A stretch of DNA of 64,000 nucleotides from an uncultured Bacilli bacterium. GTDB lineage: Bacteria > Bacillota_I > Bacilli_A > RF39 > UBA660. The translations under genes were made by a program, and so were the position numbers. Positions within the stretch are counted from its first letter, which is position 1. Each line of letters starts with the position of its first letter. Under the pieces are notes generated by a model, which was given only the letters and a program-made list of their open reading frames with translations, was not told the origin of the DNA and ran no database searches. The DNA is taken from assembly GCA_947632545.1 (NCBI GenBank), contig CANRPP010000002.1:2057-66056 (forward strand). Reading direction: 5' to 3'. Shown here piece by piece: positions 4,873 to 30,601 of the stretch.

Positions 4873-4906
4873 GAAAAAAAAGTAATCTGAATTATTACAG
4901 ATTACT
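4873..4906 (-). terminator. intrinsic terminator closing the accessory island operon
   Basis: 9-bp perfect stem AGTAATCTG / CAGATTACT with an 8-nt loop. On the minus strand it is followed by TTTTTTTT (plus-strand A-run 4873..4880). Confidence 0.6.
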
Positions 4907-6207
4907 TATCTTATTATATATGGTTTAGCTTTAGTACCTTTACCACTTTCAATCATAACAGTATTATTTAAATGAATAACTGGTCTTACATGACTATCAT
5001 TAGAAGCTTCTTTGTCATCTATACTTCCTGATGATATAAAATAAACTTTAGAACTATCTTCTGCTTTTCCATTAATAAGCCAATAACTTTCATTAAGTAC
5101 TAAATAATTATAATTTTGACATTCTGGTGATACTGTAGTTGTACAACCTGGATCTATTGAAGCATTTAAATAATCATATACTGATAACATAGCCATTTTT
5201 GTCTCATACTTAACACTACAATCACTACTTCCATCCTTTGATGTATCATTTTCTGTTCTAGTACCAACACAAGCATTAAATTTCTTTAATTTACTCTTTA
5301 TATTTTTATTTAAAAATAATTCTTCATCACTATAGTCCATATAGTCTTCATTATTTTTATCTTTATACTTAGAGGCATATAATTTATCAAGATGAGTAGA
5401 CATAGAACTATTTTTATACACATTTATTCCTGTATCATATTCTGTACTACTATTGTATCTTTCATCCCATATATATGAATTACTTGTTGCCAAATCTTTT
5501 ATTAACACTACTTCATTATTATTTGTAACTTTTACAATTCTCCATAATATATCTTCTTTTTCTTTAAATGCTACATAATTATCTACATATAATCCTCTAT
5601 AAACATATTCATTATTTAATTTATATAGACCATAACCACTAGTTACAATATTGTCTTTTTTTACTATTTCTTTATATAATTCTCTTGTTTTATAGTTGCT
5701 TCCACAATCTAGGTATGCAGTATAATCATATGAATTAGAGCTGTTTTTAACTACTACTTTCCCAGTACAGCTATCATTTTTTAAATATTTATCTAATGGC
5801 TTCATATATTTACTATTTGATAGAGTATCATCTGAAATAAATACAGAATTATTTTTTGATGGTAATTTACTTTTATTATCACTAAAATATGATTTAGCAG
5901 ATTCTACCATTACTTCTTCTACATCTGAATAAGAATATTCCTTTCTAGATAATTTAGAAAATATAAAGCCAATTAGCATTATAACTAAAAATACAATAAT
6001 TACTATAATAAATAATTTAACCATTTTTACTCTAAACTGTTCTTTAGATGTTGTACTTACTGTATTTGAATTTGAAGTAGTAATTTCTAAATCATCATCT
6101 TCATCTTCATAGCCTGGTACATCTTTTAATTCTTCTTCTTTTTCTTCTTCTTCTTTTTTAGTAATTTGATCTTTATCTATATGATTACTATTAGGATCCA
6201 TACTCAT
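4906..6207 (-). CDS. membrane-anchored Cys-rich surface protein (acidic N-terminal cytoplasmic tail, one transmembrane segment, about 350-aa extracellular domain); paralogous to 27187..28980
   Basis: Acidic N-terminus (EEEEKEEELKD, EDEDDD) and the transmembrane segment LFIIVIIVFLVIMLIGFIF. Shares the C-(x)GKV...Y.Y.YL.CG motif and the C-terminal GKGT...PY.I ending with the 597-aa protein. Confidence 0.5.
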   Translation of the reverse strand: MSMDPNSNHIDKDQITKKEEEEKEEELKDVPGYEDEDDDLEITTSNSNTVSTTSKEQFRVKMVKLFIIVIIVFLVIMLIGFIFSKLSRKEYSYSDVEEVMVESAKSYFSDNKSKLPSKNNSVFISDDTLSNSKYMKPLDKYLKNDSCTGKVVVKNSSNSYDYTAYLDCGSNYKTRELYKEIVKKDNIVTSGYGLYKLNNEYVYRGLYVDNYVAFKEKEDILWRIVKVTNNNEVVLIKDLATSNSYIWDERYNSSTEYDTGINVYKNSSMSTHLDKLYASKYKDKNNEDYMDYSDEELFLNKNIKSKLKKFNACVGTRTENDTSKDGSSDCSVKYETKMAMLSVYDYLNASIDPGCTTTVSPECQNYNYLVLNESYWLINGKAEDSSKVYFISSGSIDDKEASNDSHVRPVIHLNNTVMIESGKGTKAKPYIIR

Positions 6208-6228
6208 AATAACACCTCGTTTCTATAA

Positions 6229-8409
6229 TTAGTTATCAAAAAAATCATCAAAGAAATCATCGTCATCATCTTCATCTTCTAAATCTAAATTAGTTTCTAG
6301 AACCTTATCTTTATGAATAATTTCTGATTCTTTATCACCAATTACTTCTACTTTACTATCTTCTTTCTTCTTCTTTTCTTCCTCTTTATTCTTTCTTTCT
6401 TCTTCTTCTAATTCAGCTATTTTAGCATCTATCTTTTTAACTAATTCATCAACATCAAAAGTAGGCATAGAGGATTCTTCTGGATGTTTATTTACTTTTT
6501 CATTTTTCATAGAATCATTTGAATTCATTGGTTGATTAGAAATAGGTCCAAATGGATTTATAGGCATATTAGGAATAGATGGACGATTAGAATTCATACC
6601 CATTCCTCCAGGAAACATTCCTCCTCCACCTGGGAACATTCCACCATTATTATTTATACCATCTTCATTATCAGTAGAATTCATCATTTCTAATAATTTT
6701 TTCTTTTTTTCACTTTTAACAAATTCTTTAATATCAAAAGTTTTAACTACATTCTTTTTTCTTGTTGGATATTTTGCATTAGGATATTTCTTACCCCAAT
6801 TAATTTTCCAATCTGGTGTAAATGTTGTTTTAAACGGATTCATACGTAATCTTTTTAAAATAATTTCATTTTCTTTCATACGTTGTAAGTCTGCTACTGT
6901 AACAAGTGGTGTTGAAGCTGTTTTATCATCTTTTTTACTTTTTACTTCTCCACACATTTTTGAAATTTCTTCTAAAGCTTTTAATTCAGTTGTAACTAAA
7001 TATATTAAATTTCCACAGTTACCACGTAAGGTTTCTGCATCTTCTTTTCCATAAACACTATCTAATTGCGCAAAGTTTTGAATAATCATTGTAAATCTAA
7101 TTTGCCTACTTCTAGCAGCTGTAATCATTGTAGTTACATCTTTAAGAGGTGGCATATTAGCAAACTCATCAAGTAAGAAATTAGTTCTAACTGGAAGTTT
7201 ACCGCCATGTTTTTGGGCAGTAGAAATTAATGTTTCATAGATTTGCTTTAGTAATATAGTTACTAATGAGTGATAGGTTTTCTTTTCATCTTGAATTACT
7301 ATAAATACTGCAGTTGGTTTTTCTCCAATAGATTCTAGGTCTATATCACTATATGATAGCATTTCACTTAAATTTTCACGAGATGCAAATAATTTTACTT
7401 TTTGTCTAAATACAGATAAAATACTTCCCTTTGTTTCAGATGGTGCACTAATTGTTGCAGATGCATTAACTGCTGCAGCACTTGCAGGATCTTTCATATC
7501 AAAGTATTCCTTTATATAAGTTGAGCCTCCAAATTTATCTTCACCAACAGTACTCATTAAATTAATACTATTTATATTTATTTCATCTTCTTTTGCATCT
7601 TCAAATAAACCTAAAGATAATCCTGAAAAATAATCAGCTGATGTTTTTTCCCAGAATGGATCTGCATTTTTATTTGATTCATCATATAAAATATTTAAAG
7701 CTAAGTCATCAAGTAACTCAATAGCTTTATCTTGGTAACCAGATTTATACATTTTATATGGAAGACTCATTGGATTCCAAGCATTACCATTTTGTGGATC
7801 ACGAAAGTTTAATAATAAAATTTGATAACCTTTTTGTTTTAACATTAAACTTGTTTTTTCATATATTTCACCTTTCGGGTCTGTAATTATCATTGATTCT
7901 TTCTTTTTAGATAATATTTTAACAGTAGGCAAAATTACAGTTTGTGTTTTACCAGAACCAGTAGCACCAATAACTAAAGTATGATTTTCACCATTATCAA
8001 CCCAGATATCATCACCTTTATACATTAAAGGTGTTCCTGCAGCATGAGTTCTTTTATCATGAATATTTATTTTTTCAATATCTTTTAAACTTTGAATTTC
8101 TTTATCTTTAGCCCATCTACTATATCCTTTATCTTTTCTTTGAGTTGTAAAACCAATTCCTTTTTCCATATCAAAAAAACGTGAACTAACACTAATTGTT
8201 AATGCAAGTAAAGCAATTATATAAAAAACTATAGTTGTAGTTATATTTTCTGTTGAAAATGCAGGAAATGGATTTAAGCCTTCCATAGTTCCATATGTTG
8301 CCAAAGATGATATATTAGCTACTGCTAAAGCTACTAAATATAGTAAAAATATGGCAAAAACTATAAATATTGTTAAATCTTCTGGATCTGCTCTAAATTT
8401 TAATTTCAT
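6229..8409 (-). CDS. type IV secretion coupling protein (VirD4/TraG/TraD family)
   Basis: N-terminal transmembrane segments; Walker A GATGSGKTQT; ITDPKGE motif; Walker B-like FLLDEF. 726 aa with a Gly/Met-rich repeat (GGMFPGGGGMFPGG) and an acidic C-terminal tail (DEDDDDDFFDDFFDN). Confidence 0.85.
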   Translation of the reverse strand: MKLKFRADPEDLTIFIVFAIFLLYLVALAVANISSLATYGTMEGLNPFPAFSTENITTTIVFYIIALLALTISVSSRFFDMEKGIGFTTQRKDKGYSRWAKDKEIQSLKDIEKINIHDKRTHAAGTPLMYKGDDIWVDNGENHTLVIGATGSGKTQTVILPTVKILSKKKESMIITDPKGEIYEKTSLMLKQKGYQILLLNFRDPQNGNAWNPMSLPYKMYKSGYQDKAIELLDDLALNILYDESNKNADPFWEKTSADYFSGLSLGLFEDAKEDEININSINLMSTVGEDKFGGSTYIKEYFDMKDPASAAAVNASATISAPSETKGSILSVFRQKVKLFASRENLSEMLSYSDIDLESIGEKPTAVFIVIQDEKKTYHSLVTILLKQIYETLISTAQKHGGKLPVRTNFLLDEFANMPPLKDVTTMITAARSRQIRFTMIIQNFAQLDSVYGKEDAETLRGNCGNLIYLVTTELKALEEISKMCGEVKSKKDDKTASTPLVTVADLQRMKENEIILKRLRMNPFKTTFTPDWKINWGKKYPNAKYPTRKKNVVKTFDIKEFVKSEKKKKLLEMMNSTDNEDGINNNGGMFPGGGGMFPGGMGMNSNRPSIPNMPINPFGPISNQPMNSNDSMKNEKVNKHPEESSMPTFDVDELVKKIDAKIAELEEEERKNKEEEKKKKEDSKVEVIGDKESEIIHKDKVLETNLDLEDEDDDDDFFDDFFDN

Positions 8410-8443: not shown

Positions 8444-9232
8444 TTATTCATAATTTGAAACCAATAAATTAAAGTTAGCATTATCAAATTTATATAATCT
8501 TTCTTCTACTCCACTATTACTATAATAAGCGCAGCTTACTATAACTTCGTATTTATTATCTTGATCAATATCTAAAATACTATTTACATATGGCTTACAT
8601 CCATCATAAATATCATCTTCTTTAGAACTATTTTTATATATAGGATATATTCTATTATTTTTTACCATAAATATTAAACCAAAATATTTTTCATTTTCTT
8701 TTTTTTCAGAAAATCTATTAGTAATAGTATAGATATATTCATTTTTACCATTATTATCTATATCTAATGATATAACATTACTACTTGATAATTCTATATC
8801 TGTATTAATTTCATTTTCTGCTAGTGCTTTTTCTACATAGCTATAATCAGTAATATCATTTTGTTTTATATTAATAACTTTATAATTATGATCTGTATCT
8901 AACCCTATAAAAGAGCCTTCATAATTTACAGCGTTATTATCATTATCAAATAAATACCATTTATCTTGATTAACTATATAATACTTTCCAAAATATTTAG
9001 TATCTGTATAGATATTAAATTTATTCCAACTAATACTATCTAAATCTTCAGTTTTATTTAATTTAATCCATCTAGAGCCAACTTTTCTAAAAACTGCATC
9101 ATTATCAATAATTATAGTAGGGTCCATTTTTTGTTTTTTATTAGAATCCATTCCATATATTATAAAAAATATTGCAGATAACGCTATAATTATAATGAAA
9201 ACAAATAAGTATCTTTTATTACTTTTTTTCAT
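8444..9232 (-). CDS. bitopic secreted/membrane protein, possibly VirB8-like T4SS component
   Basis: N-terminal transmembrane segment then an about 230-aa extracytoplasmic domain. Position between hydrolase and coupling protein. No diagnostic motif. Confidence 0.35.
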   Translation of the reverse strand: MKKSNKRYLFVFIIIIALSAIFFIIYGMDSNKKQKMDPTIIIDNDAVFRKVGSRWIKLNKTEDLDSISWNKFNIYTDTKYFGKYYIVNQDKWYLFDNDNNAVNYEGSFIGLDTDHNYKVINIKQNDITDYSYVEKALAENEINTDIELSSSNVISLDIDNNGKNEYIYTITNRFSEKKENEKYFGLIFMVKNNRIYPIYKNSSKEDDIYDGCKPYVNSILDIDQDNKYEVIVSCAYYSNSGVEERLYKFDNANFNLLVSNYE

Positions 9233-9240
9233 ATTGCCTC

Positions 9241-11097
9241 CTATTTATTAATCTTATAATAAACTAATCTAGAAGTATTTTTCCAATTATATTGTTGCCA
9301 CATATTTGAAGAATCACTAGCTGGATCCATCATAATTACATCTTTTCCATTTACAGTATCTATTGCAACCCAGTGTTGTCCTGTATTTCCTTTTACTTCT
9401 GCAACAACAGCATAACCATTATTTACTAATTCACCTATTTTAGAAAGTTTATCTGATTTAGAATAATTAGCTACTGATATATTCTCACCATATACAAAAC
9501 TTGGTGCTATTTCTGAAACTTTATTCCATAATAAATTTGCTCCACTAAAGCCATTAATTTTATTCATTGCTTTAACAAATGTACCTGGATTAAATTCTCC
9601 TTCTACATTTGTACTTACACCAGCTTTAGCAATTAACATTGCAATTGAAGTTGCTAAACATCCAGATTTACCTATTGTATGTGAACTTGTACCTAGATAT
9701 ATTCCTGACCAACTTTGTCCTGATTGTAACCATTTTGCATAATCTCCTGTTGCTTGATTACAATTATTATTTCCACTACCAGTACAATTCATAGAGACAA
9801 TCTTTGCTGCTCCTGAACTTCTATAATGTTGTAATAAAATTTGATTATAATCTAGACCACTTTTAGCCATAGAGTTCCATTTAATCTGAACTGATTGTGC
9901 ATAATCCGTATTTACTATATAACCATTATTATCAACTACAACTTGCCCTGCAGTCTCTGCAACCCATTGACGAACTTTACTATTTTGAGGTAATTTAGGT
10001 TTTTTAGCACCACATTTAGTTGAAGGATAACCTCTATCCGGATCACAATAAGTTTGATCATTTACACTATTTCTTAATTGAAGTATCCATTGACCATTTT
10101 CTTTTGATAATTTAGTACCATTAGAATTTCCCATTACTGATGGTCTAGATAATGCATAACTTCTTGCTGCTATCGCTTGAGCCTTTGTATCAGCTTCTTC
10201 TCCAACATGCTCTTGATACGTAGTTCCTAATATATATTTTTCAAAATCTACTAATGGCTCGTTAGGTACAGGAGCAGTACCATTTTCATTCATGAGTCTT
10301 ACTTTTAAATTAGAAATATCCATATTTTGTTTATATATTTTAGATTCATTTCTAAAACCAGGAACTGTATATAAGCAACTTCCTATAACACCACAGGCAT
10401 TTTCTTCTTCTTCTTTTTCTTCTTCTTGTTGTTCATCTATTGCAACTACTGCCATTAGTAAACCTAAAATGAAAAAAAATATTATTGAAACTGCTATTAC
10501 TATTATTTTAGTTTTCGGATTTTTTAAAAAGCCAGTTCCTCCAACTGTTCCTGACATATCAACTTCTTGTTCATTTTCACTTGAATCACTTGAATCATCT
10601 ATAGAGTTTGTGGAAGATTTTGATTTTTTTCCACCTCCACCTGGTAACATTCCACCTGATGATTTATTCTTGTCACTTGAGTTAGCTGCAGAATTTCCCA
10701 TTTCATTTAAAGAATTTGCTCCTGCTGATGATCCATTTTGACCTCCAGCTCCTAAAGACATAGCTTTATCTGCGGCATCTAAAGCTCCAGCATCATCTAA
10801 CTTTTTTGCAGTTTTACCAAATTTACCACCAGTTAGTCTATTGGCAGTTTTACCAAGTTTTTCTTCGGCTTTATCTAGCTTTTTACCAACGCCTGGTATT
10901 TTTTTGGCCTTATCATATATTTGACCACCTTTACCGGCTGTAAAATAATTAAGAGCAGCTTTTCCTGCAACTCCAGCTGCTTTTTTACTACTTTCATCTT
11001 CCTTGTTTTTTTGATCATTTTTGACTGCTCTATAGGAATTTTCATTTTCTGAACTATTAGATGAATTTTCGTTTTTATTATTATCTAATTGTGGCAT
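9241..11097 (-). CDS. T4SS-associated cell-wall hydrolase (VirB1/CwlT analogue): SpoIID/LytB-like domain plus papain-like Cys peptidase (CHAP/C39-like) domain
   Basis: Low-complexity Gly/Ser/Lys-rich N-terminus and a transmembrane segment. SpoIID-like signature EEADTKAQAIAARSYAL. C-terminal GKSGCLATSIAMLIAKAG ... GQHWVAID, consistent with a Cys/His catalytic dyad. Confidence 0.6.
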   Translation of the reverse strand: MPQLDNNKNENSSNSSENENSYRAVKNDQKNKEDESSKKAAGVAGKAALNYFTAGKGGQIYDKAKKIPGVGKKLDKAEEKLGKTANRLTGGKFGKTAKKLDDAGALDAADKAMSLGAGGQNGSSAGANSLNEMGNSAANSSDKNKSSGGMLPGGGGKKSKSSTNSIDDSSDSSENEQEVDMSGTVGGTGFLKNPKTKIIVIAVSIIFFFILGLLMAVVAIDEQQEEEKEEEENACGVIGSCLYTVPGFRNESKIYKQNMDISNLKVRLMNENGTAPVPNEPLVDFEKYILGTTYQEHVGEEADTKAQAIAARSYALSRPSVMGNSNGTKLSKENGQWILQLRNSVNDQTYCDPDRGYPSTKCGAKKPKLPQNSKVRQWVAETAGQVVVDNNGYIVNTDYAQSVQIKWNSMAKSGLDYNQILLQHYRSSGAAKIVSMNCTGSGNNNCNQATGDYAKWLQSGQSWSGIYLGTSSHTIGKSGCLATSIAMLIAKAGVSTNVEGEFNPGTFVKAMNKINGFSGANLLWNKVSEIAPSFVYGENISVANYSKSDKLSKIGELVNNGYAVVAEVKGNTGQHWVAIDTVNGKDVIMMDPASDSSNMWQQYNWKNTSRLVYYKINK

Positions 11098-11117: not shown

Positions 11118-12908
11118 CTATAGTCCTCCACCACTACCAAATGAATCTAATTCATCTTTAGTAACAGTTATATTAATTCTCATACGCCTATTTCCACATA
11201 CAAATAAGGCTTCACCTTGAGAATAACTTTTTATACTTTCTTTTTCACTATCATTTAAATCTATTAACAAACCTAAATCTTCTACAGCTTGTTTTCTTAA
11301 TCCCATAATTAAATAGTATGACGCATTATCAAAGATTGCTTTACCTTGTGTAATAATTTCTTGAGATGCAAAATCACTTGGTTGTTGAGTTATGATTATA
11401 GTACCTGTATTATATTTACGAGCACGTCTTTGTACTTGTGCTAAAAAGTCTGCTCCTAGGCTATTATGATCACCTAGTAATACATGTGCTTCATCAATCA
11501 TAAGGATTGTATCAACTGTTGGATCAAGACATAATCCCCAAGCATATTTTAAAACATTAAAGAATAAAGCATTTTTAACATTAGAATCACTATTCATTAA
11601 TTCTTTTATATTAAATACCATAAAATCACTATTTTGATTTATAGTTGTATGTCCATCAAAGTAAAATTTTAATTCTTTTGTAATTGGTCTTACTTTTAAC
11701 TCAAGACGTTCCATAATATCCCTTTCTTGAGTTTGTTCTGTCATTGACATTAATTTACCTTTAATAGTTGCATAAACATCACTAAAAGTTGGATAATCTT
11801 CTGAAGTAAAACCAGAGAAATCTGTATTATAATCTATTCCAAATCTTTTATATGTATCTTGTACTATTTCACTAAACATCGTTAGTACATCTTCTTCAAT
11901 TGATGGATCATAGTATTTCATAAAGGCTTTTAAGAATTGTAAAGTTCTTGTAAGTACTGTATAACCTAGTCCTTGTTTTATTTCTTCTTCATCTGCATCT
12001 ATTACAACTTCAAGGGGATTTATTAATCCAAATTCTCCACCTTTACCAATATCTACTTGATCTCCACCAAAAGTTCTTGTAATTTCAGCAAGTTCATTTT
12101 CTGGATCTATTGCAACTATCTGGCATCTATTTCTAATATGTGTTCTAAGCATTAATTTAGCAGCTGTAGATTTACCTGAACCAGATGTACCTAAAATAAT
12201 CATATTAGCATTATTTCTATTATTTTCTTTTCTAATTTTATATAAAAATTGATTAAATAAAATTACTCCTCCAGAAAAATCAACACCAAGTAAGGTAGAA
12301 AGTCCTGGATCTTTTATACTATCAAATATAAAAGGATACATTGCTGCTATAGTAACAGATGGTATAGGAGTTCCAATACGTTCTTCTATATCTTGAGATG
12401 GGAATATTGGTAAAATTGATTTTAATACTTTTTCTTGTTCAAATCTTAATGATACAGCACGTAAATCCATAGCGTCTAAATAGTTTTTGACATTTACTTT
12501 TTTAAGTTCTAATTCTTCTTTAGTATCAGCAGTAATCATAATGTGCATTTGAAAATCAAAAATACGTGCTTGTGATGCTGCTAACATTGAAATAAAATAT
12601 TCCAAACTTTCATAATCTTGTCTAATTCTTTCTTTTGATGTTTGATCTTTTTCTTTAGTATATCTTTCTTTTAAATCAGCAACTTGTTTATTTAACATTT
12701 TAGAAATCATACTAAATGGTACAGGAATATGTTTTACAACTATTTTTATTCCAGACATACTTGTTAATGTAGATAAATATCCCGGACTAATATATCTAGG
12801 ATATGATACAACTGTTAAGATTGTTGCATATTTATCACTTATAAAGAAATCACTTGGACTAAAGTGAAGTCCTTTAGGAGCAATTTGTCCTCTAATACTT
12901 ATACTCAT
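11118..12908 (-). CDS. VirB4/TrbE/ConE-family T4SS ATPase (C-terminal 596 aa)
   Basis: Walker A GTSGSGKST, Walker B ILMIDEAHVL, overall VirB4 architecture. Start overlaps the stop of the upstream ORF (ATGA coupling). Confidence 0.85.
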   Translation of the reverse strand: MSISIRGQIAPKGLHFSPSDFFISDKYATILTVVSYPRYISPGYLSTLTSMSGIKIVVKHIPVPFSMISKMLNKQVADLKERYTKEKDQTSKERIRQDYESLEYFISMLAASQARIFDFQMHIMITADTKEELELKKVNVKNYLDAMDLRAVSLRFEQEKVLKSILPIFPSQDIEERIGTPIPSVTIAAMYPFIFDSIKDPGLSTLLGVDFSGGVILFNQFLYKIRKENNRNNANMIILGTSGSGKSTAAKLMLRTHIRNRCQIVAIDPENELAEITRTFGGDQVDIGKGGEFGLINPLEVVIDADEEEIKQGLGYTVLTRTLQFLKAFMKYYDPSIEEDVLTMFSEIVQDTYKRFGIDYNTDFSGFTSEDYPTFSDVYATIKGKLMSMTEQTQERDIMERLELKVRPITKELKFYFDGHTTINQNSDFMVFNIKELMNSDSNVKNALFFNVLKYAWGLCLDPTVDTILMIDEAHVLLGDHNSLGADFLAQVQRRARKYNTGTIIITQQPSDFASQEIITQGKAIFDNASYYLIMGLRKQAVEDLGLLIDLNDSEKESIKSYSQGEALFVCGNRRMRINITVTKDELDSFGSGGGL

Positions 12909-13754: not shown

Positions 13755-13772
13755 TATATCACACTCCCTTTA

Positions 13773-15848: not shown

Positions 15849-15874
15849 CTCGTTTCCTTTTTATTTTATTGTAA

Positions 15875-16315: not shown

Positions 16316-16331
16316 ACTATTATAATTATAA

Positions 16332-16370: not shown

Positions 16371-16377
16371 CTTTTTA

Positions 16378-22473: not shown

Positions 22474-22971
22474 TTATTCTTTTCCATATACATTTCCAGT
22501 TTGTTTAAGCTTTGTTGCTACTGGGTTTTCTTTTACTTCTGATACTAATATACCATCAAGTCTATTTTGAATGATTACATTATTATTATCTTCAGCTTTT
22601 TTTTGATCTTCACTTGTAAAATTAGTTCCTGCAGGATTCCAACTTTTATTACCTGCCTTTACTTCTACACTAACTTTAGGTGGAACTTCATTAATATCAA
22701 CCATTCTTATTTCATAATTTCTTGCATTGTTTACAGCGTTAGCAAACCTAAAGATAAAGCTTTCAACAAATTTTTCTTTATCCATTCTTAAAGTACCATT
22801 TTTGTAATAATAATTATAATCAATAGCATCAGTCATAGCAGCTTGAGTTGATTCTTTTAATGTATAATAATCAAGCTCATTACCCATTGAATAATTTCCT
22901 ATTAAATTAATTCCTGCTAAAGCTATAATTCCTAATAAAATAATTCCTACTGTTAAAAATGCTTTATTCAT
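22474..22971 (-). CDS. membrane-anchored protein, possible TadE/TadF-like minor pilin
   Basis: 165 aa with an N-terminal transmembrane helix; first gene of the Tad-like block. Confidence 0.3.
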   Translation of the reverse strand: MNKAFLTVGIILLGIIALAGINLIGNYSMGNELDYYTLKESTQAAMTDAIDYNYYYKNGTLRMDKEKFVESFIFRFANAVNNARNYEIRMVDINEVPPKVSVEVKAGNKSWNPAGTNFTSEDQKKAEDNNNVIIQNRLDGILVSEVKENPVATKLKQTGNVYGKE

Positions 22972-22991: not shown

Positions 22992-25900
22992 TTACCTTAA
23001 TTTACTTATATCCTTATAATTATTATTTGTACCTTGTCCATTTGATATTGGTCGTACATTAGAAGCATAATTTATAATTATCTTACTTCCATTTTTAAAG
23101 CTTTTACCATTCAAATCATCTATCACTTTACTAGTATATCTTAAAAGTCCTAATATTTTTGGATCTTCCTTAAAATTACCAGTATAATCTGTATATTTAT
23201 GGTTTTTATATTCATTTTTTATGTAATCTATTCCTTCACTAGGTATATAAATATAGTAATCAGATTCTGTAGTTGAACTATATATAGTTTCATCTTTTTC
23301 TTCACTTCTTAAATATTCAACATATTTTTGTGGATCTATACCATATGTTTGAGAATATTGATTATTATTATCTATACCAGCTACTATTTTTGCAGCACTT
23401 GTCCAGTTATATCCTTGTTTTTGATTGCTATTTTCAGTAAATAATTCACCTTGATCTATAACTTTAAATTTATATGATTGATTCTCATGACAAGGAGGAT
23501 TTTTACAACCTACGTCATCTCCTGGAGGAGGTATAGGTATGTTATCACTATCACTACTATTATCATAAATTCCATAGAAACATGAATAATTTATTGTCCA
23601 ATTATATTTACCAAAATTTAAGGCTTGAGCTTGAATATTATTTTTTATTGTTGGCTCTTGTATAGTTGGATATAAAAGGTTTCCATCTTTATCTTTTGTC
23701 TGCTCGTGCCAATGCCACCATGCAACATTTATATTACTACTATCTCTTGGGAAACAATATGTTTGTCCATGAGGTGCAGAACCAGTTTTACATGTAGAAT
23801 CGTATTCTGGTTCTAATGATTTATCATTTATCCAAGTACCTGGGAATGTTATTGTAGTTTGATATTGTGGACTTTGTGTAGTTCCATCATAACACCAACC
23901 TAAAATACCATATTTAGATTTAGGTTCTTCACTATCAGCTGGAACAAACATTGAAAAGACATGACTTGAAGGAGGATCTTTTTTATTTTCATCACAAATA
24001 TTGTTTTCTGATATAGGATTTGTATTTCCTAATTCAGTTTTTCCATTTTTTTCTACTTCATTATTAGTATTACTATCTCGAGGATTTATTATTTTTATTT
24101 TGAAATCAGCTGTTTTTTCTGTTTCTTTACAGTCAGCTGATACTTGACAACTATCAAGTGCATCAGCAATTATTTTCATATCACTTTTAGTTGTGGTTTT
24201 GTCACTATTTTCTGCTATATTTAAGTTATTTACAAATGCATCAGGTGTTAGAGAATTTTTTGCACTACATCCTGTATATTCACATATTTCACCACAATGC
24301 CAATTAGTACTTGCTTTATATTGTCTTTTTACACCATCTTTATCAATATAATATGTAGCATTATTATGTGGATCTTTATCTAACACAGCTAAAATTAATT
24401 GTTTTGTAGCAGCTTTATCTCTTAAATAGAATGGTGAAGCTTTTCCTAATGCACACCAAATATCTTTTTTATTCTTATAATTACTACAATTTAGGTCACT
24501 CTTCCATTTAGATCCATCTTTATTATAATGTCCTTTTGGATATAATGCTTTAGCTTCAAAGAAATATTCTGAACACCAATCAAGATCATTTAATATTTCA
24601 TTTTGTGTATCACATTTACCTACAGCTGTAGATTTACTACTATAACCTTTAAGATTTTTTTCATCCCAAGTATGTAAATCTTTAACCTCTAATAAATTAT
24701 TACTATTGTTTTTTTCTTCAAATACTAGATTACTTAATTCTGATTCTTCTATAGCTTTATCATTATTACTAGTTTTTTCTATATTATTTTTCTCAACATC
24801 TTTTTTATTATTTTCATATACTTGTTTATAACATTTATTTATACAACTTTGACTATATTTTCCATTATCACACTCTTTTATACATTTATCAAAATCTTCA
24901 GATGGCCCAGCTTGTGTATGATTTTTTTCTCCAGAACATATAGGTATAGGAGAACACATTTCTTTTTGAAGTTTTCCAACCAATCCTCCATTAGTATTAG
25001 TATTAGAACCTTCAATTATCTCTTTATTATATTTAACACCACATTTAGTTTCACTTTTTACTGTAACTTTATACGAAATACATATTCCTGCTATAGCTGC
25101 TACAGGAGGATCGTACTCAACAGTTAAATGTTCATAACATATTGTATTACATATAGTTGGAGATGATCCATCAGATAATGGCTCACTAGTTGCAATAGGT
25201 TTATCTTCAACATATAAATATTGTTTACTACCAATGCCCTGTTTCAAATCACTTTCACATTGCAAACTAACATTTGTATTAGAAACTGTTTTTACATTTT
25301 TATCTGCTTGTAAGTCAGTAACATGTTTTTTTACTTCATCATATGTATTAGCATAGCCTGATGTACTTTCTGATTTTTTTGATAATTTTTTACTTTTATA
25401 ATACATTTCCATAGCACTATTTGCAAGTTGAGCTATCTGCTGTTCAGTTATATTAAATGCAACAGATTTTTTATTGCAATAAAAGGTTCCTAGTAATGGA
25501 TCATAGTAATGTTGTTGATAATATGCTCTTTCTGCTTCTGGAACTGTATATTTTTTATCATCAGCAGCTATTTTTTCACCAAGTTCTGTTTTTGAATCAT
25601 ATTTTCCATCACGAGCATTAATACAAGCTTCATTATATTCTCCATCTATTCCTCTTAAATTTTTAACTTCTATAGTTTCGTCTGGATTTTGAATATATTC
25701 TGATGCAGAAACACCAGATAAAGCCATTACACCATCTGCCATTCTTGTTTGTTCTCTTCCGTTTATACATGATACTTCAAATTTTTTACCTTTATCATTT
25801 TTACATTTTTTATTAGTTTTTGTATCCTTTGATAAATAAACTACAACAAGAGCATCATAGCCAGGATTTAGCTTAACATTTACAACATTATCCCCACTAT

Positions 25901-26390
25901 CTCTGGAAACTTCAATTGCCTTATACTTTTTTTCTAATTTTTTAGAATCACTTGCTATCTTTGTTTTATAAACTTTTAATCCATCGTCTAAATCATCATT
26001 ATCTAAATCATCAATATCTTTATCTAAATTAATAAAACTACTATCATCAAGTGTTCCATATTTTCCATAAAATACTCTAATTCTATAAACTGCATTTTGA
26101 GTAAGTGCTGCTTTTGGAACTGTTATTTTTATATTTCTTGGTTCACTACTATTTACATACTCATGGAAACCATTATACCATGCTTTTTTTGAGTATTTAC
26201 TAACATCAATTGATATTTTAAAATCTGATTTGCATATATTATTTGCACATGTTTTGCATTTTGCAGTAGTACAATTAGATCCTTTACCATTAGCTGATTC
26301 TCTAACTTCAGCAAAAGTATTTTCGGGACTAATTAGAAATAATAACCCTATGCATATAATTAAACTTAATATTATTTTTTTAATTTTCAT
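22992..26390 (-). CDS. 1132-aa secreted cysteine-rich protein (candidate adhesin or pilus-associated protein)
   Basis: Signal peptide MKIKKIILSLIICIGLLFLISPENTFA. Dozens of Cys throughout, no transmembrane segment, no LPXTG-like C-terminus. ATGA overlap with the sortase gene. Confidence 0.55.
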   Translation of the reverse strand: MKIKKIILSLIICIGLLFLISPENTFAEVRESANGKGSNCTTAKCKTCANNICKSDFKISIDVSKYSKKAWYNGFHEYVNSSEPRNIKITVPKAALTQNAVYRIRVFYGKYGTLDDSSFINLDKDIDDLDNDDLDDGLKVYKTKIASDSKKLEKKYKAIEVSRDSGDNVVNVKLNPGYDALVVVYLSKDTKTNKKCKNDKGKKFEVSCINGREQTRMADGVMALSGVSASEYIQNPDETIEVKNLRGIDGEYNEACINARDGKYDSKTELGEKIAADDKKYTVPEAERAYYQQHYYDPLLGTFYCNKKSVAFNITEQQIAQLANSAMEMYYKSKKLSKKSESTSGYANTYDEVKKHVTDLQADKNVKTVSNTNVSLQCESDLKQGIGSKQYLYVEDKPIATSEPLSDGSSPTICNTICYEHLTVEYDPPVAAIAGICISYKVTVKSETKCGVKYNKEIIEGSNTNTNGGLVGKLQKEMCSPIPICSGEKNHTQAGPSEDFDKCIKECDNGKYSQSCINKCYKQVYENNKKDVEKNNIEKTSNNDKAIEESELSNLVFEEKNNSNNLLEVKDLHTWDEKNLKGYSSKSTAVGKCDTQNEILNDLDWCSEYFFEAKALYPKGHYNKDGSKWKSDLNCSNYKNKKDIWCALGKASPFYLRDKAATKQLILAVLDKDPHNNATYYIDKDGVKRQYKASTNWHCGEICEYTGCSAKNSLTPDAFVNNLNIAENSDKTTTKSDMKIIADALDSCQVSADCKETEKTADFKIKIINPRDSNTNNEVEKNGKTELGNTNPISENNICDENKKDPPSSHVFSMFVPADSEEPKSKYGILGWCYDGTTQSPQYQTTITFPGTWINDKSLEPEYDSTCKTGSAPHGQTYCFPRDSSNINVAWWHWHEQTKDKDGNLLYPTIQEPTIKNNIQAQALNFGKYNWTINYSCFYGIYDNSSDSDNIPIPPPGDDVGCKNPPCHENQSYKFKVIDQGELFTENSNQKQGYNWTSAAKIVAGIDNNNQYSQTYGIDPQKYVEYLRSEEKDETIYSSTTESDYYIYIPSEGIDYIKNEYKNHKYTDYTGNFKEDPKILGLLRYTSKVIDDLNGKSFKNGSKIIINYASNVRPISNGQGTNNNYKDISKLR

Positions 26391-27162
26391 TTAAATCGTC
26401 TCCTTTTAATATTTTTTTTATTTTATTATAGTTACTTTTTTCAGTAACTTTATAATTATTTATTATTTCTAATTTTCTCACTTGTCTTGCATCTACAACA
26501 AAGGAATAATCAGAATCACCATAGAATCTTGTGCAAGTGACTAAAGTTAATATTTTGTCGTCTTCAGACACATCCACATTAAATTTAAAATAACTTCTAT
26601 CTATGGAATTTTTTATATAGTCCCTTTTTTCTTTTTTATCTATATTATATAATTCAACATCTTCTTCAGGTTGTAAGTATACTGCATATATTTTAAATAA
26701 ATAATTTTTTCCATTTATTGTATATTGAATATACTTATTATCTTTTACAAAATCATAATAGATATATGACATTAACTGTTCAAATCTAGCTTGATTTTTA
26801 TCTGCAATTAGTGGTTTAGAAGATACGTTTCTCATATTATGTGATAATAGTACAGTTCTATTTACTAATTTTTTATTATCTTCAAAACTCCATCCTAAAT
26901 CATATGACGGATCACTAATATCTTCTATACTATTATAGTAAAATATAGGAAAATCAATATTAGTTCCTTGTACTCTTAACCAACCTAAAGGTTTAGATAC
27001 TACATTACTAAAATTTGATTTTGTAATTTGTTTTGTTCTATCTTTAGTTCTATAGTAAGGTCTTAATATAATTATTGATAATAAACATGCCACTAATACA
27101 ATTATAATAGTTATAGATTTTGGTTGTAATTTGTTTTTTAATTTTTTTTTGTTCTTCTTCAT
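26380..27162 (-). CDS. sortase (class B-like transpeptidase)
   Basis: N-terminal transmembrane anchor and the catalytic TLxTC signature (KILTLVTCTRFYG); 260 aa. Confidence 0.7.
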   Translation of the reverse strand: MKKNKKKLKNKLQPKSITIIIVLVACLLSIIILRPYYRTKDRTKQITKSNFSNVVSKPLGWLRVQGTNIDFPIFYYNSIEDISDPSYDLGWSFEDNKKLVNRTVLLSHNMRNVSSKPLIADKNQARFEQLMSYIYYDFVKDNKYIQYTINGKNYLFKIYAVYLQPEEDVELYNIDKKEKRDYIKNSIDRSYFKFNVDVSEDDKILTLVTCTRFYGDSDYSFVVDARQVRKLEIINNYKVTEKSNYNKIKKILKGDDLNEN

Positions 27163-27186
27163 ATATTTACACCTATCATATATATA

Positions 27187-28980
27187 TTAATTTGTAATTG
27201 TATAAGGCTCTGATATTGTACCTTTTCCATTTTTTACTATAACATTTTTATTTAAATAACCTACTACTCTTATTTCAAATTCAGATTCTTTATTATATTT
27301 ACCACAATAAATATTTTTATTTAATGACATCGCACAACTAATATTAGAATCTGTTGAATGATTTTGATACCAATAATTTGTGTCAGTAACACTGGTTCCA
27401 AATAAATCATACATATTTGGTAAGTGAAGTTTAGATGTATATGTCTTATTTGCTATTTTACCATTATAACTAATATTTTTATTATAATTTAATGTTTCTA
27501 TTTTTTCTTTTTTGAATAATGTTGTTTTTATATTAGATGTTAATTCATTATTTAATTTATATCCTATATTTTCTTTTTCACTAGTACTATAATTTATTTT
27601 AGTTTTATTTGTATAATTGGAATCATATTCTTCAACAACATCATCCATAATTATTTTTGTTGTATTATCTTCTTCTTTTCCTATAACTCTCCAATTATAA
27701 CCAGAATATGAAATATAATCTCCAGATTTAGCATTTGATATACTATCGCCTGTTTTTAAAGTATTGACATTACCTTTTAAAACATATGGATTATCTGTAT
27801 TTCCATTTCCTGTAGTTATATAAGAATCCTTTTTAATATTTAAAACCGGATATATAACTAAATTTAAATTATTACTTTCTTTCAAATATTTTTCTTCCAT
27901 ACCAAATGTTATTGTTTTTTCTGTAGATGCTGGATTACTTGTCCATGTTTTTGATAAACTTCCTACATTATAACTATCATCTGATGATTTAGAATTATTT
28001 ATATCTGCAACTGATAGTAACCCTACTTTTTTCTTTTTTCTTGCATAGCTATTACATTTTGTATAATCTTTAGGATTAGATATTTTTTCATCACACCATT
28101 TACTATCTACTATATATTCTTTAGCGCTATCAGAAAGTTTATTGTAGAAATAATCGTTTAACCACTCATCAACACTATTATAATCTACTGCTGCTAATGG
28201 ATCAGTAGAAACTACTTTTACTGTTTCATCATCATTAAGTCCTACTATTTTAAATAATATACCATCTAGTTTAATATAATTGTTTTCATTTGTTCCTTTA
28301 TATACATTATTAGTCTTTTTAGTTTCTTTTTTTACTATTTTATCTAATACTTGCTCTACTTTTACTGTCCTTATTTTTATAGTTTCATTATTAAAACTAT
28401 CTCTTACTTTATATGTAACCTCATATGTTCCATTTTTATTTGTATTTACTTTAGATGTATCTATAGTAACTTCACTTGTTTTTATATTACCATCAGTATC
28501 ATCAACTACACTTTTTACACCTAAATCTTTATATTTATCACCTTTTTCTATAGTAATAATATCATTACCATTTAAAGTAATTTCTGGTCCTTTATGATCA
28601 ACTTTTGATGATAAGATTCCACATTTTAAATATACATAATATTTATATTTGTTATCTTCTTTTCTAACTTTTCCCCATGATAATTTAGAATCACATTCTT
28701 TAGAAGTATATGGTGATCTTAAATCCTCACTTATTAAATCTTTATCATATAATTTTTGTAGTGTTACTGTTCTTATTTTTTCACCTGTTGGTAATAGACT
28801 ATTATTTATTTCATAATATCTTTTAGTAGCCTCTCTTACTTTTTCTTCTGCTTTTTTAAATTTAAGTAATGGACTTGCTATTAAAAACCATATAATCAAT
28901 AATATTACTACTACAATAATTATTATTTTTATATTTTTACTTTTTTTATCTAAATCTTTATCATTTGATTTACTATTCAT
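27187..28980 (-). CDS. membrane-anchored surface protein, paralogous in N- and C-terminal motifs to 4906..6207
   Basis: Transmembrane segment IIIIVVVILLIIWFLIA; motif C..GKV..(Y.Y.YLKCG); C-terminal KNGKGTISEPYTITN. Confidence 0.5.
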   Translation of the reverse strand: MNSKSNDKDLDKKSKNIKIIIIVVVILLIIWFLIASPLLKFKKAEEKVREATKRYYEINNSLLPTGEKIRTVTLQKLYDKDLISEDLRSPYTSKECDSKLSWGKVRKEDNKYKYYVYLKCGILSSKVDHKGPEITLNGNDIITIEKGDKYKDLGVKSVVDDTDGNIKTSEVTIDTSKVNTNKNGTYEVTYKVRDSFNNETIKIRTVKVEQVLDKIVKKETKKTNNVYKGTNENNYIKLDGILFKIVGLNDDETVKVVSTDPLAAVDYNSVDEWLNDYFYNKLSDSAKEYIVDSKWCDEKISNPKDYTKCNSYARKKKKVGLLSVADINNSKSSDDSYNVGSLSKTWTSNPASTEKTITFGMEEKYLKESNNLNLVIYPVLNIKKDSYITTGNGNTDNPYVLKGNVNTLKTGDSISNAKSGDYISYSGYNWRVIGKEEDNTTKIIMDDVVEEYDSNYTNKTKINYSTSEKENIGYKLNNELTSNIKTTLFKKEKIETLNYNKNISYNGKIANKTYTSKLHLPNMYDLFGTSVTDTNYWYQNHSTDSNISCAMSLNKNIYCGKYNKESEFEIRVVGYLNKNVIVKNGKGTISEPYTITN

Positions 28981-28989
28981 ATTTATCTC

Positions 28990-30552
28990 CTATCTTATTT
29001 TATAATAATATTTTTGATTTCTAACTGTATATATAATTTCTATATCTTTTGATTTTTCTATTTCACTTGGAACTTTAATATATACATATTTTCCTAAATA
29101 ATCTTTATTTTGCAGTGAATCTTTAATTTTTATTTCCTTGGCTATATTCTCACTATCTATATATTTAATTTTACCATAACTAGAAGAAAAGTCAATTAAA
29201 TTTTGGCCTTCATAATTATCTGACGAAAACTCTATTTTTAAATTTTTATAATTAGGGTCTGCTGCAATTGTTTTTGTTTTTATCTCACATATATCATTAG
29301 CATCACATGATTCAATATTATATTCTGAATTATCTTCTATAACTACTTTTTCAAAAGTAATATTTTCTTCATCACCATTTGGAAATTTTATAGTCATTTC
29401 TTTACCTATTTTTTTACTAGGATTTATATTAATTTCAGAAACATCTATTAGTTTAAGTTTAATTTTTCTTAAATATTGTTTTTTAGAATTTTTATATTGT
29501 TGGTAATATAAAACAAAATTATTTTTATTTAAGTTCTTATCAACTTTAAATACCATTGCAAAGGTTCTTTTTTCTCCTTTATTAAAAGCTCTATTACTAT
29601 AACTATTACCAATATCATCAAAGTTTTTAGAATACATTCCTTCTGAAAATGTTATATCTTTATTTCCATTAACTAAATGAAAGTTATTTGAATCTAATTC
29701 TCTTTGTCCACTATTATTTATAATAGTCATATTAAGTATTACAAAGCTACTATTTTTTTCTATAATATTTCCTGTTTTATCTTTATTTGTATAATAGCTT
29801 TTATTTATTGTTATAGTATATCCGTTAGCATTTAAGTTTTTAGTTTCTTTTATAGTCTTATGAGCTATACCAAAATAGTAATAAGTATAACCAATTAAAG
29901 ATATTCCTGCTACTGAAATAACAATATTCATAATGAATTTATGTTCTTCATAGAAATAACCAATTAATCTTAATACTTTTTTATAACTTCTCTTAAATCC
30001 TTCTTTATCTATATTAATATTTATTTCAAATTCTTCTCTATCATTTTTCTCTAAATCAAGGAATTCTTGATCATTTTTAAATCCAAATTTATTTAAATCA
30101 AGTCCTGTAATTCTAATAAATAAAACTATAAATGATACATATTGTGGTAATGTTGCTAAAAATAAAAAGTCATGTATCGCTCTTGCAGGCGCAGATGTTG
30201 CTAATTCTCCTTTTGAAAAATAGCTTTGAGTATAACTAAATATTAAAAATACTGCAAAATAAGTTAATAATAAAATTATATATGATTTCCATGGTTTATT
30301 TTTTCTTTTTAATAGTACTATTAATGTTATAACTATAGCAATAATTAAAATAACAGCTATATAAAATAATAAACTAGTATATTGGGTTATAGGTTCTAAC
30401 TCTGGATCATAACTTAAGTATTTTGTAAATTCATTTATAAATCCAGTTAATTGAGATGTTTTATAATATATAAAAATACATAATAGAAGTAAGATAATAT
30501 GTATCTTTTTAAAATTTTTTATTAAAAATGCATATGGTTTTCTAAATATCAT
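28990..30552 (-). CDS. polytopic membrane protein with large extracytoplasmic C-terminal domain; first gene of the island
   Basis: 5-6 N-terminal transmembrane helices then about 300 aa hydrophilic. AGGAGGGA ribosome-binding site. Confidence 0.45.
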   Translation of the reverse strand: MIFRKPYAFLIKNFKKIHIILLLLCIFIYYKTSQLTGFINEFTKYLSYDPELEPITQYTSLLFYIAVILIIAIVITLIVLLKRKNKPWKSYIILLLTYFAVFLIFSYTQSYFSKGELATSAPARAIHDFLFLATLPQYVSFIVLFIRITGLDLNKFGFKNDQEFLDLEKNDREEFEININIDKEGFKRSYKKVLRLIGYFYEEHKFIMNIVISVAGISLIGYTYYYFGIAHKTIKETKNLNANGYTITINKSYYTNKDKTGNIIEKNSSFVILNMTIINNSGQRELDSNNFHLVNGNKDITFSEGMYSKNFDDIGNSYSNRAFNKGEKRTFAMVFKVDKNLNKNNFVLYYQQYKNSKKQYLRKIKLKLIDVSEININPSKKIGKEMTIKFPNGDEENITFEKVVIEDNSEYNIESCDANDICEIKTKTIAADPNYKNLKIEFSSDNYEGQNLIDFSSSYGKIKYIDSENIAKEIKIKDSLQNKDYLGKYVYIKVPSEIEKSKDIEIIYTVRNQKYYYKIR

Positions 30553-30601
30553 TTATATCCCTCCTATTATCCTATCTTTTTATATTATAACTTATTTATA
30601 C

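Follow-up and report, generated by a model that had tools for sequence, protein, structure and literature searches.

Gram-positive conjugative elements have been described as forming no conjugative pili, and in the same account of plasmid pLS20 genes 38-41 of the conjugation operon are listed as unknown (PMC8557374). The literature on plasmids of the pAW63/pXO2 type names the secretion ATPase 'VirB11' and mentions no pilus module (PMC9673590). The machinery of the integrative conjugative elements (ICEs) of mycoplasmas has been linked to location-independent, unconventional transfer of the chromosome (PMC6030558; PMC4251992), and a stand-alone pilus-like system of CpaF, PilC (GspF) and DUF5411 proteins has been predicted in gut Clostridia (PMC9523054). 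Here we analyse a locus from an uncultured Bacilli bacterium in which both kinds of machinery stand together. It is a 25.7-kb block at 4906-30552, minus strand, of a 64,000-nucleotide stretch of DNA (assembly GCA_947632545.1, contig CANRPP010000002.1, positions 2,057 to 66,056; hereafter the window), and it consists of three modules: a monoderm type IV secretion system (T4SS), a Tad-like pilus module and a sortase/surface-protein module. We consider it probable that the block is the version of the Bacillota plasmid conjugation apparatus that belongs to the order RF39, fixed in the chromosome, stripped of mobility genes and kept for contact-dependent transfer. Our literature search found no description of a T4SS, pili or conjugation in RF39, nor of a T4SS-Tad combination in Firmicutes. 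The domestication of T4SSs as such is already known; the block is a monoderm conjugative type with a Tad-like module, fixed across RF39. As far as the literature shows, what is new is the order-wide conservation in RF39, the monoderm setting and the implication of an unrecognised pilus module in model Gram-positive plasmids.

The block holds 22 co-oriented open reading frames (ORFs) of at least 60 amino acids (aa) with hardly any gaps between them (internal gaps at 16720-16795 and 18468-18537); each additional small ORF overlaps a larger one in another frame. In the order of transcription it begins with g520, g597, the sortase gene, g1132, the genes for the DUF5411 protein, CpaB, the secretion ATPase, the TadB-like and TadC-like proteins, g64, g153 and g324, and it continues with two VirB2-like genes, VirB6, VirB3, the N-terminal and ATPase parts of VirB4 (VirB4N and VirB4C), the hydrolase, g262, VirD4 and g433. 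A preliminary description of this DNA, made from the sequence alone, had counted 26 genes on the minus strand; the strand is right for all of 4906-30552, the number is too high. Its list of mating-pair formation proteins (VirD4, a split VirB4, VirB3-like and VirB6-like proteins, two VirB2-like paralogues and a SpoIID/Cys-peptidase hydrolase) has been borne out by family matches.

The host order of the block is RF39, and not a clostridial group as had been supposed. RF39 is an entirely uncultured gut order of Bacilli (PMC9606305) whose members are reported to be highly reduced and auxotrophic (PMC12306168). Databases contain more than 7000 homologues of the VirB4 ATPase ORF; among the top 120, identity is 87-100%, contigs reach 1.4 Mb and the length is 587-596 aa, nearly always exactly 596. 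A scan of one genome per GTDB species with this ORF as query found VirB4 relatives in at least 574 species. The best 80 species matches, with VirB4 82-97% identical, include one in a circular 1.52-Mb chromosome and are labelled uncultured Bacilli or Tenericutes, Mycoplasma sp. CAG:877, Candidatus Onthousia or Candidatus Faecimonas; the last of these is the GTDB genus CAG-877 of the order RF39, with 28% G+C and a 1.4-Mb genome (PMC8035907). When all window proteins were compared with these 80 species loci by tblastn, the same genes were found in the same order. The median identities amount to 85.5% for the VirB4 ATPase, 68% for the VirB4 N-domain and 68% for VirD4 on the T4SS side, to 74% for the secretion ATPase and 69% and 66% for the platform-like proteins on the pilus side, and to 75% and 78% for the flanking TrpRS and RmuC. 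Across RF39, VirD4 ranges from 63 to 89% and the secretion ATPase from 65 to 86%, and no gene of the block is better conserved than that of the VirB4 ATPase domain. Use of the secretion ATPase as seed in a second scan yielded 80 further metagenome loci, 22 of them long, and the gene order from g520 to VirB4C is identical in all 22. The collinearity of genome and metagenome loci upholds the earlier view that the T4SS and the Tad genes form one unit.

The block forms a single locus in RF39, and its position is likewise stable on the left side: of the 57 loci that reach far enough, 47 have rmuC no more than 2 kb from g433, and 44 have a rhodanese gene. Variable presence or a variable insertion site, as expected of an ICE, was not seen in the at least 574 species, the 47 of 57 rmuC junctions and the long loci, all of which are collinear. 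The ratios of nonsynonymous to synonymous substitution rates (dN/dS) against the closest relative, which are approximate figures since dS is near saturation, are 0.04 for VirB4, 0.11 for VirD4 and 0.14 for the secretion ATPase, 0.09 for g324 and 0.12 for both platform proteins, compared with 0.11 for rmuC and 0.13 for dedA in the flank; for the exposed proteins they reach 0.24-0.52. The centre of the block has a G+C content slightly above that of its immediate flanks, and other conserved housekeeping stretches of the window are equally raised. At 50% clustering, RF39 VirB4 collapses into a single representative, with the next full-length relatives, on short contigs, at 45% and 42% identity; beyond those, identity does not exceed 35%, as in Thomasclavelia ramosa and Solobacterium. 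Because of the collinearity, the rmuC junction, the purifying selection, the matching G+C content and the isolated VirB4 clade, these data indicate that the block is a core locus with a long vertical inheritance under host-level selection. The term 'domesticated' used in the preliminary description thus fits, with ATPases (0.04-0.14) about as constrained as the flanking genes (0.11-0.13); 'island' does not.

The pairing of a T4SS with a Tad-like module also occurs on relaxase-bearing conjugative plasmids of Bacillota and Mycoplasmatota, at 28-34% identity, which makes it a homologous architecture and not the same element. The counterparts are arranged as follows.

pBMB68 (Bacillus thuringiensis, pAW63/pXO2-like, conjugative; NZ_CP010581.1), T4SS side: MobP3 relaxase, VirD4 (CD1115), TrbL, PrgI-like protein, small ORF, VirB4, NlpC/P60, SLH protein.
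pBMB68, pilus side: large protein, DUF5411, SAF/CpaB, ParA-type ATPase, T2SS/T4P ATPase, two membrane proteins, small proteins, DUF4320.
Priestia koreensis plasmid: the same pilus part, adjoining VirD4.
Mycoplasmatota zrk4 plasmid from a cold seep: VirB4 beside SAF, AAA ATPase, CpaF and T2SSF genes.
pLS20-family plasmid NZ_AP028060.1: adhesin, ATPase (gene 37), membrane proteins (38, 39), small transmembrane (TM) proteins, VirD4, VirB6-like protein, small ORFs, VirB4.

Hidden Markov models (HMMs) of the RF39 families match eight components (VirD4, VirB4C, VirB4N, VirB3, the TadB-like and TadC-like proteins, CpaF and CpaB) on the pBMB68, Priestia and zrk4 plasmids, and in pBMB68 both modules are present together, as in RF39. 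In contrast to the block, pBMB68 is a conjugative plasmid with a MobP3 relaxase next to VirD4; its VirB4 is about 28% identical to that of RF39, its hydrolase is of the NlpC/P60 and not the SpoIID/C39 type, its surface anchoring relies on SLH domains where RF39 has a sortase, and its modules stand in another order. Sets of DUF5411, SAF (CpaB), ParA-type ATPase, CpaF and TadB-TadC-like genes lie beside a T4SS on three unrelated plasmids, at 25280-31519 in pBMB68 and at 12517-17888 and 24486-30059 in the others. The combination had been presented as a system class not yet described: this holds for the literature, where it is scarcely mentioned, and fails for the plasmids, on which it exists (pBMB68, Priestia, Mycoplasmatota and, in part, pLS20). 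Occurrence of the same island on plasmids had been named as evidence against the preliminary reading; the plasmids supply such evidence in part, since what they share with the block is the homologous architecture alone.

The pLS20 operon resembles the block in its overall order, from the adhesin through the ATPase and two membrane proteins to VirD4, a VirB6-like protein and VirB4. On the pLS20-family plasmid, RF39 HMMs find VirD4 (E 3e-63), the ATPase (E 1e-52), VirB4 (E 4e-34), VirB6 (E 2e-7, a pLS20_p028-family protein) and, with the TadC-like model, the gene-39 homologue (E 2e-5). The operon differs in residing on a plasmid with a relaxase and quorum-sensing control, and in the pLS20 family CpaB, DUF5411 and TadZ-like proteins are not matched by the RF39 HMMs. 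By these matches, the model Gram-positive conjugation operon of the pLS20 family may encode an unrecognised Tad-like platform. The genes that match the RF39 CpaF-like and TadC-like HMMs (NZ_AP028060.1, 11216-13963) are those which the pLS20 literature names 'putative VirB11' (37) and 'unknown' (39). A further relative is the machinery of the Mycoplasma ICEs (CDS17/TraE-VirB4, CDS5/TraG-VirD4): VirB4_plasma is the best model for RF39 VirB4, and the host lineages are related, both being Bacilli with reduced genomes. Unlike the block, these ICEs are mobile by means of a DDE transposase and inverted repeats, live in wall-less hosts and have no Tad-like module.

The T4SS module of the block is made up of the following genes.

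6229..8409, minus strand: VirD4 coupling protein, CD1115 family (T4SS-DNA_transf E 4e-60; TraG-D_C; TrwB_AAD_bind).
8444..9232, minus strand: g262, a TM helix and a beta-rich ectodomain with a DxDNDG motif (no Pfam hit; predicted model with a pLDDT of 90).
9241..11097, minus strand: bifunctional cell-wall hydrolase, VirB1 analogue (SpoIID E 3e-7; Peptidase_C39_2 E 8e-4; TIGR02669).
11118..12908, minus strand: VirB4 ATPase domain (P-loop_TraG/AAA_10; VirB4_plasma positions 296-891, E 1e-104).
12905..13513, minus strand: VirB4 N-terminal domain in an ORF of its own (VirB4_plasma positions 96-276, E 7e-17).
13422..13754, minus strand: VirB3/PrgI-like small membrane protein (VirB4_plasma positions 2-96, weak, E 0.05).
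13773..15848, minus strand: VirB6/TrbL-like channel protein with a long variable C-terminal extension (PF19597 TrbL_4, 29 bits, cut-off 27).
15875..16315, minus strand: VirB2-like T4SS pilin, paralogue 1 (PF18895 T4SS_pilin E 9e-7, passes the cut-off).
16378..16719, minus strand: VirB2-like T4SS pilin, paralogue 2 (blastp against paralogue 1 E 9e-17; family comparison by hhalign 99.6%).

VirD4 passes the NCBIfam model conju_CD1115 with 305.8 bits (cut-off 250). Its last 12 residues, DDDDDFFDDFFDN (window 6229-6270), are acidic-aromatic in character and invariant in all RF39 orthologues inspected, and the linker of about 150 aa that precedes them is hypervariable in length and sequence, a pattern that suggests a conserved docking tail. 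Comparable tails are the acidic C-terminus of the F-plasmid protein TraD, which binds TraM, and that of SSB. The hydrolase consists of a disordered N-terminus, a TM helix, a SpoIID-like domain and a papain-like Cys-peptidase domain. For g262, which by its position was the candidate for VirB8, the predicted fold has weak similarity to propeller or integrin-alpha blades (FG-GAP/Ca-binding-like), and its assignment as a VirB8-like scaffold with an NTF2 fold was rejected in favour of a beta-propeller/FG-GAP-like ectodomain. The protein is restricted to RF39, and the plasmids have no counterpart of it.

VirB4 is distributed over three ORFs, of which the VirB3-like, N-domain and ATPase products tile positions 2-96, 96-276 and 296-891 of the 894-residue VirB4_plasma, the model of Mycoplasma ICE VirB4. 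The score of 351 bits is below the cut-off of 590 for this model, which is still the best-matching one; the CD1110 model recognises the ATPase part with E 5e-51. The N-domain probably starts downstream of the annotated TTG, because its orthologues are about 185 aa long. A split VirB4 is also found in pBMB68, with a small membrane ORF, an ORF of about 200 aa (RF39 VirB4N HMM, E 5e-20) and an ATPase ORF, and plasmids of the pLS20 type have small ORFs ahead of VirB4 in the positions of the VirB3-like and N-domain ORFs. The RF39 VirB3 HMM detects the PrgI-family gene of pBMB68 (E 1e-4) and an ORF in the equivalent position of the zrk4 plasmid (E 3e-7). Judged from sequence, the three-way split is ancestral; a pseudogene was rejected as its explanation, since the split is kept in all RF39 loci and recurs in the same arrangement on pBMB68.

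The genes of the Tad-like module are listed below.

22474..22971, minus strand: DUF5411 protein with an N-terminal hydrophobic helix (PF17424 E 8e-42), a marker of Firmicutes Tad-like loci.
21653..22459, minus strand: CpaB/RcpC-like (SAF-domain) pilus assembly protein (PF16976 E 1e-6, 28.9 bits against a cut-off of 28.8).
20240..21619, minus strand: CpaF/TadA/VirB11-family secretion ATPase (T2SSE E 5e-28).
19320..20213, minus strand: TadB-like platform protein, 297 aa, divergent T2SSF family (RF39 HMM to Priestia protein, E 7e-17).
18538..19320, minus strand: TadC-like platform protein, 260 aa, divergent T2SSF family (RF39 HMM to plasmid ORFs in equivalent position, E 2e-16 and 1e-9).
18273..18467, minus strand: g64, small prepilin-like protein with a conserved N-terminus, candidate major pilin.
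17788..18249, minus strand: g153, second prepilin-like protein, whose conserved leader MRDAxGG runs into a hydrophobic helix; candidate for a minor pilin or a TadE-like protein.
16796..17770, minus strand: g324, TadZ-like, a receiver-like domain and a degenerate ParA/MinD-type NTPase domain (AF2 model, pLDDT 82).

The DUF5411 gene holds the same place, ahead of SAF/CpaB, in pBMB68 and in the Priestia plasmid. The CpaB-like protein also matches TIGR03177 pilus_cpaB (E 4e-11, under the cut-off), and the RF39 CpaB HMM finds the plasmid SAF proteins with E 1e-34 to 1e-38. The TadB-like and TadC-like proteins have no direct Pfam hit, either themselves or across 28 orthologues, and a Pfam scan of 74 RF39 orthologues of TadB, TadC, g324, g153 and g64 returned no relevant family. 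Their assignment follows from the T2SSF scores of two plasmid counterparts (E 3e-5 for the Priestia protein and 5e-8) together with the mutual paralogy of the two families (hhalign 96.8%, E 2.5e-10). The Tad set of the preliminary description is therefore supported to different degrees: CpaB and the ATPase are matched directly and the TadZ-like protein by its fold, and TadB, TadC and the Flp-like and TadE-like proteins, having no direct Pfam hit, gain indirect support.

Both g64 and g153 have short basic leaders that end in G and run into a hydrophobic helix, which gives them the look of prepilins with a class III signal. The N-terminus of g64, MKAATGELNLTVITLIAIAAVIGFFW, is nearly invariant in 25 orthologues and the C-terminus is variable; its real start is probably the ATG at 18455 (MKAATG...). 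No family or PDB hit was obtained for g153. The formation of a filament by these two proteins is plausible at best from their leaders, because the candidate pilins match no Flp or TadE model. For g324, which has no sequence-family hit, an AlphaFold2 (AF2) model was built on an alignment of 29 homologues, and Foldseek retrieved HypB, ParA, MinD and BcsQ as well as the two-domain Eubacterium rectale structure 3fkq, with a match across both domains. We take 3fkq to be the TadZ of that organism; by its predicted fold, g324 is TadZ-like. Profile searches of g324, g262, the TadB-like and TadC-like proteins, g433 and g153 against PDB sequences gave nothing usable. Taken together, the module shares with Tad/Flp (type IVc) pili a CpaF-family ATPase, two T2SSF-type paralogues, CpaB, a two-domain TadZ-like protein and short-leader prepilin-like proteins. 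It differs from them in being physically fused to a T4SS and in having no secretin, as expected for a monoderm.

The surface module surrounds these genes.

28990..30552, minus strand: g520, which opens the block, a polytopic membrane protein ending in a large ectodomain (no Pfam hit).
27187..28980, minus strand: g597, membrane-anchored Ig-like surface protein (Bact_surface_Ig-like E 1.6e-16).
26380..27162, minus strand: class-B-like sortase (PF04203 E 3.8e-8).
22992..26390, minus strand: g1132, secreted Cys-rich protein of 1132 aa with a signal peptide and 36 Cys.
4906..6207, minus strand: g433, last gene of the block, with an acidic cytoplasmic N-terminus, a TM helix and a Cys-containing ectodomain; paralogue of g597.

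The sortase scores 53 bits against the class B model TIGR03064, which is under the cut-off. The g433 and g597 families are related (hhalign 99.8%) and have a C-terminal GxGTxxxPYxI motif in common, so that the two paralogous surface proteins named earlier, like the sortase and the Cys-rich secreted protein, are confirmed. At 36-56% identity among RF39 loci and a dN/dS of 0.32, g520 is always the first gene of the collinear block. Faster still, g1132 is only 23-47% identical among these loci (dN/dS 0.46) and has no family hit in Pfam or NCBIfam. On the plasmids, the corresponding position is taken by proteins of three kinds (large hypothetical, Ig-like and thioester), and the plasmid relatives bear large surface adhesins at this place.

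Searches with Pfam and NCBIfam recognised neither a relaxase nor an integrase among the ORFs of the block and the 64-kb window, nor any family of replication or excision proteins, in line with the preliminary description. There are no att-like direct repeats that bracket the block; the long direct repeats consist of ATPase Walker motifs and low-complexity sequence. The sole unassigned cytoplasmic protein of the block had been g324, and thus the single possible hidden relaxase; this candidate was rejected on account of its receiver-like and ParA/MinD-like predicted fold and the match to 3fkq. By the absence of an integrase or DDE recombinase from the block and of att repeats, it does not qualify as an ICE, and the earlier statement that it is no classical ICE or plasmid holds, also in view of the TadZ-like and not relaxase-like fold of g324.

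We propose that the RF39 block functions as follows. The CpaF-family ATPase, the TadB/TadC platform, CpaB and the TadZ-like protein would assemble a thin filament from g64 and g153. Filament and fast-evolving surface proteins (g1132, g597, g433 and g520, possibly handled by the sortase) would make and stabilise the contact with a target cell, and the SpoIID/Cys-peptidase hydrolase would open the producer's own wall. VirD4 would then recruit a cytoplasmic substrate, possibly via its invariant DDDDFFDDFFDN tail, for translocation by VirB4, VirB3, VirB6 and the VirB2-like proteins. The small-genome RF39 bacteria probably need the block for contact with other cells. As to the substrate, we tentatively favour DNA, at somewhat less than an even chance: it may be chromosomal DNA exchanged between RF39 cells, with processing encoded elsewhere or unconventional. 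DNA is slightly favoured because every characterised homologue is a DNA-conjugation system, VirD4 scores above the cut-off of a curated model of conjugal transfer and the nearest family to VirB4 is that of the Mycoplasma ICEs.

Several observations weigh against a chromosomally fixed conjugation apparatus with a working pilus. The right junction differs among RF39 genera, where the neighbour is always a housekeeping gene (GreA-like in 8 loci, elsewhere DUF6568, TrmL, BipA-like and further ones), and the dN/dS figures are, as said, approximate. The VirB11, TadA-family and FlaI models score about equally on the secretion ATPase, all under the cut-off, so that CpaF and VirB11 are not separable by score. 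The candidate pilins g64 and g153 match no Flp_Fap or TadE model of Pfam and do not have the G/xxxxEY motif of Flp-type prepilins (leader MKAATG/ELNL in g64), and no prepilin peptidase (A24-type, TadV/CpaA) was found among the ORFs of the block or the window. Among all ORFs of 160 RF39 loci there is no LPXTG- or NPxTx-type sorting signal that would mark a sortase substrate. A VirB8-like protein was not identified, given the fold of g262 and the searches with g433, which gave no PDB hit and merely weak N-terminal family matches. Finally, the relaxase search covered 64 kb of a genome of about 1.5 Mb.

The identity of the substrate separates the chromosomal conjugation apparatus from the main alternative, that the T4SS injects effector proteins into gut bacteria or host cells, with pilus and adhesins providing the contact for a dependent (epibiotic or parasitic) or a competitive lifestyle. 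Such a role is conceivable, if rather unlikely. It accords with the retention of VirD4 in the absence of a relaxase from block and window, with the order-wide conservation, and with fast-evolving surface parts (23-47% identity in g1132; dN/dS 0.3-0.46) next to constrained ATPases; the invariant VirD4 tail could dock an effector or adaptor, and a dependent lifestyle would fit the reduced, auxotrophic RF39 genomes (PMC12306168). What speaks against it is that neither an effector candidate nor a secretion signal could be recognised in the window and that all characterised homologues are DNA-conjugation systems. To our knowledge, protein-translocating T4SSs are poorly documented in monoderms. As an analogy, the rvh T4SS occurs throughout the Rickettsiales, and Saccharibacteria conserve T4SS-like and type IV pilus genes; like the block, these are conjugation-derived systems kept vertically across a small-genome, partner- or host-dependent lineage, yet they are diderm P-type systems or of unrelated architecture. 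If DNA is the cargo, it could also be taken up or released, as by Helicobacter pylori ComB, the gonococcal genetic island (GGI) or archaeal Ups/Ced, the pilus capturing DNA or cells and the T4SS moving the DNA. The pairing of pilus and T4SS, the presence of rmuC and lexA in the neighbourhood and the use that reduced genomes might have for scavenged nucleotides or recombinational repair are in keeping with this idea, which we nonetheless regard as improbable. A ComB-like uptake role is made less likely by the retained VirD4, conserved at 63-89% identity, whereas ComB-type systems have none; GGI-type secretion requires a relaxase, which was not found in the 64-kb window. The weak matches of the CedB and CedD models (22 bits against a cut-off of 700 and 35 bits against 600) reflect generic ATPase folds, and the parallel to Ups/Ced drawn in the preliminary description holds as an analogy only.

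Two further readings concern the integrity and the mobility of the locus. The locus could simply bring together two unrelated neighbours, a T4SS and a Tad pilus that serves adhesion or colonisation, a view that can point to the stand-alone CpaF, PilC/GspF and DUF5411 loci of gut Clostridia (PMC9523054) and to the small internal gaps. It is very improbable in the face of a pairing found at all RF39 loci and again in three or more independent plasmid lineages, of a TadZ-like gene that directly abuts the VirB2-like genes, and of co-oriented modules for which the scan of the ends called no internal terminator. An ICE or integrated plasmid that is still mobile or was immobilised recently, with relaxase and recombinase unrecognisable or just outside the block, is largely refuted and, in our estimate, the least probable reading of all. 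Relaxases can escape notice: in related plasmids, new families of them were overlooked for a long time, and for pXO16 none has been identified to date (PMC9673590). The relaxase of pLS20, RelLS20, was likewise a late discovery. A PDDEXK_2 nuclease/transposase 4.5 kb away and the slightly raised G+C content of the block would also suit a mobile element. In the block, however, every cytoplasmic protein has been assigned (three ATPases, the VirB4 N-domain and the TadZ-like protein), att repeats are absent, the rmuC junction is kept in 47 of 57 species loci with perfect collinearity, VirB4 divergence tracks species-level divergence with equally diverged flanking genes, and the raised G+C content extends to other conserved housekeeping stretches of the window.

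For the chromosomally fixed apparatus, a bolder form can be formulated, which we think unlikely: the block could be an order-defining organelle of RF39, a conjugation machine turned into an obligatory cell-to-cell device for chromosomal DNA or proteins, and its Tad-like filament the first functional 'conjugative type IV pilus' of a monoderm T4SS. If so, homologous unannotated pilus modules would act in pLS20 and pAW63 too. RF39 is a widespread uncultured gut order with genomes of 1.4-1.5 Mb and many auxotrophies, and the block is a strong clue to its lifestyle; better conserved than some neighbouring housekeeping genes, it points to cell contact for genetic exchange or the delivery of molecules, and it offers a concrete target for metatranscriptomics, imaging and enrichment work. 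Several Gram-positive conjugation systems appear to carry a Tad-like pilus module, fully in the pAW63/pXO2 type and partly in pLS20, and the claim that Gram-positive conjugation does without pili is directly testable in genetically tractable Bacillus plasmids.

At its ends the block is bounded by two non-coding elements.

4880..4907, minus strand: intrinsic terminator closing the block (10-bp stem and T-run; terminator scan).
30553..30631, minus strand: intergenic region between trmL and g520, which opens with a weak hairpin rich in A+T and a T-run and continues with a TATAAT-like box and a GGAGG site.

Of the two bounding terminators described before, the one at 4880-4907 stands; the hairpin at about 30602-30631 is weak, fails the G+C rule of the terminator scan and was not called by it. 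No internal terminator of the block was called in the scanned ends. The housekeeping character of the flanks is confirmed by Pfam matches to rhodanese, DedA and RmuC on one side and to SpoU (TrmL), DUF6568 and a U32 peptidase on the other, and the remaining window is made up of core housekeeping genes (trpS, rpoD, dnaG, pyk, polA, lexA, murE, ileS, ftsZ, ftsA, ftsQ, murB and murG). The sole mobile-element-like gene of the window codes for a PD-(D/E)XK nuclease-family transposase (PDDEXK_2, Rpn-type) at 35064-36164 on the minus strand, 4.5 kb outside the block.

An Rfam scan recovered just two T-box leaders, neither inside the block, at 56606-56801 and 169-414, both on the minus strand. Behind the former comes a gene of the Na/Ca-exchanger family (55603-56556), which is unusual at the head of a T-box operon, and after this gene ileS (52497-55586). 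In the cell-division cluster, two adjoining minus-strand ORFs of about 448 aa without a Pfam match (59335-60678 and 60681-62030) stand between an ftsQ-like gene (62034-62741) and ftsA (58030-59319). A protein encoded at 41912-43306 on the minus strand, adjoining a small sigma-70-family factor (43352-44044, minus strand), combines two Bact_surface_Ig-like domains with a polysaccharide deacetylase domain, and the same Ig-like domain is present in g597 of the block.

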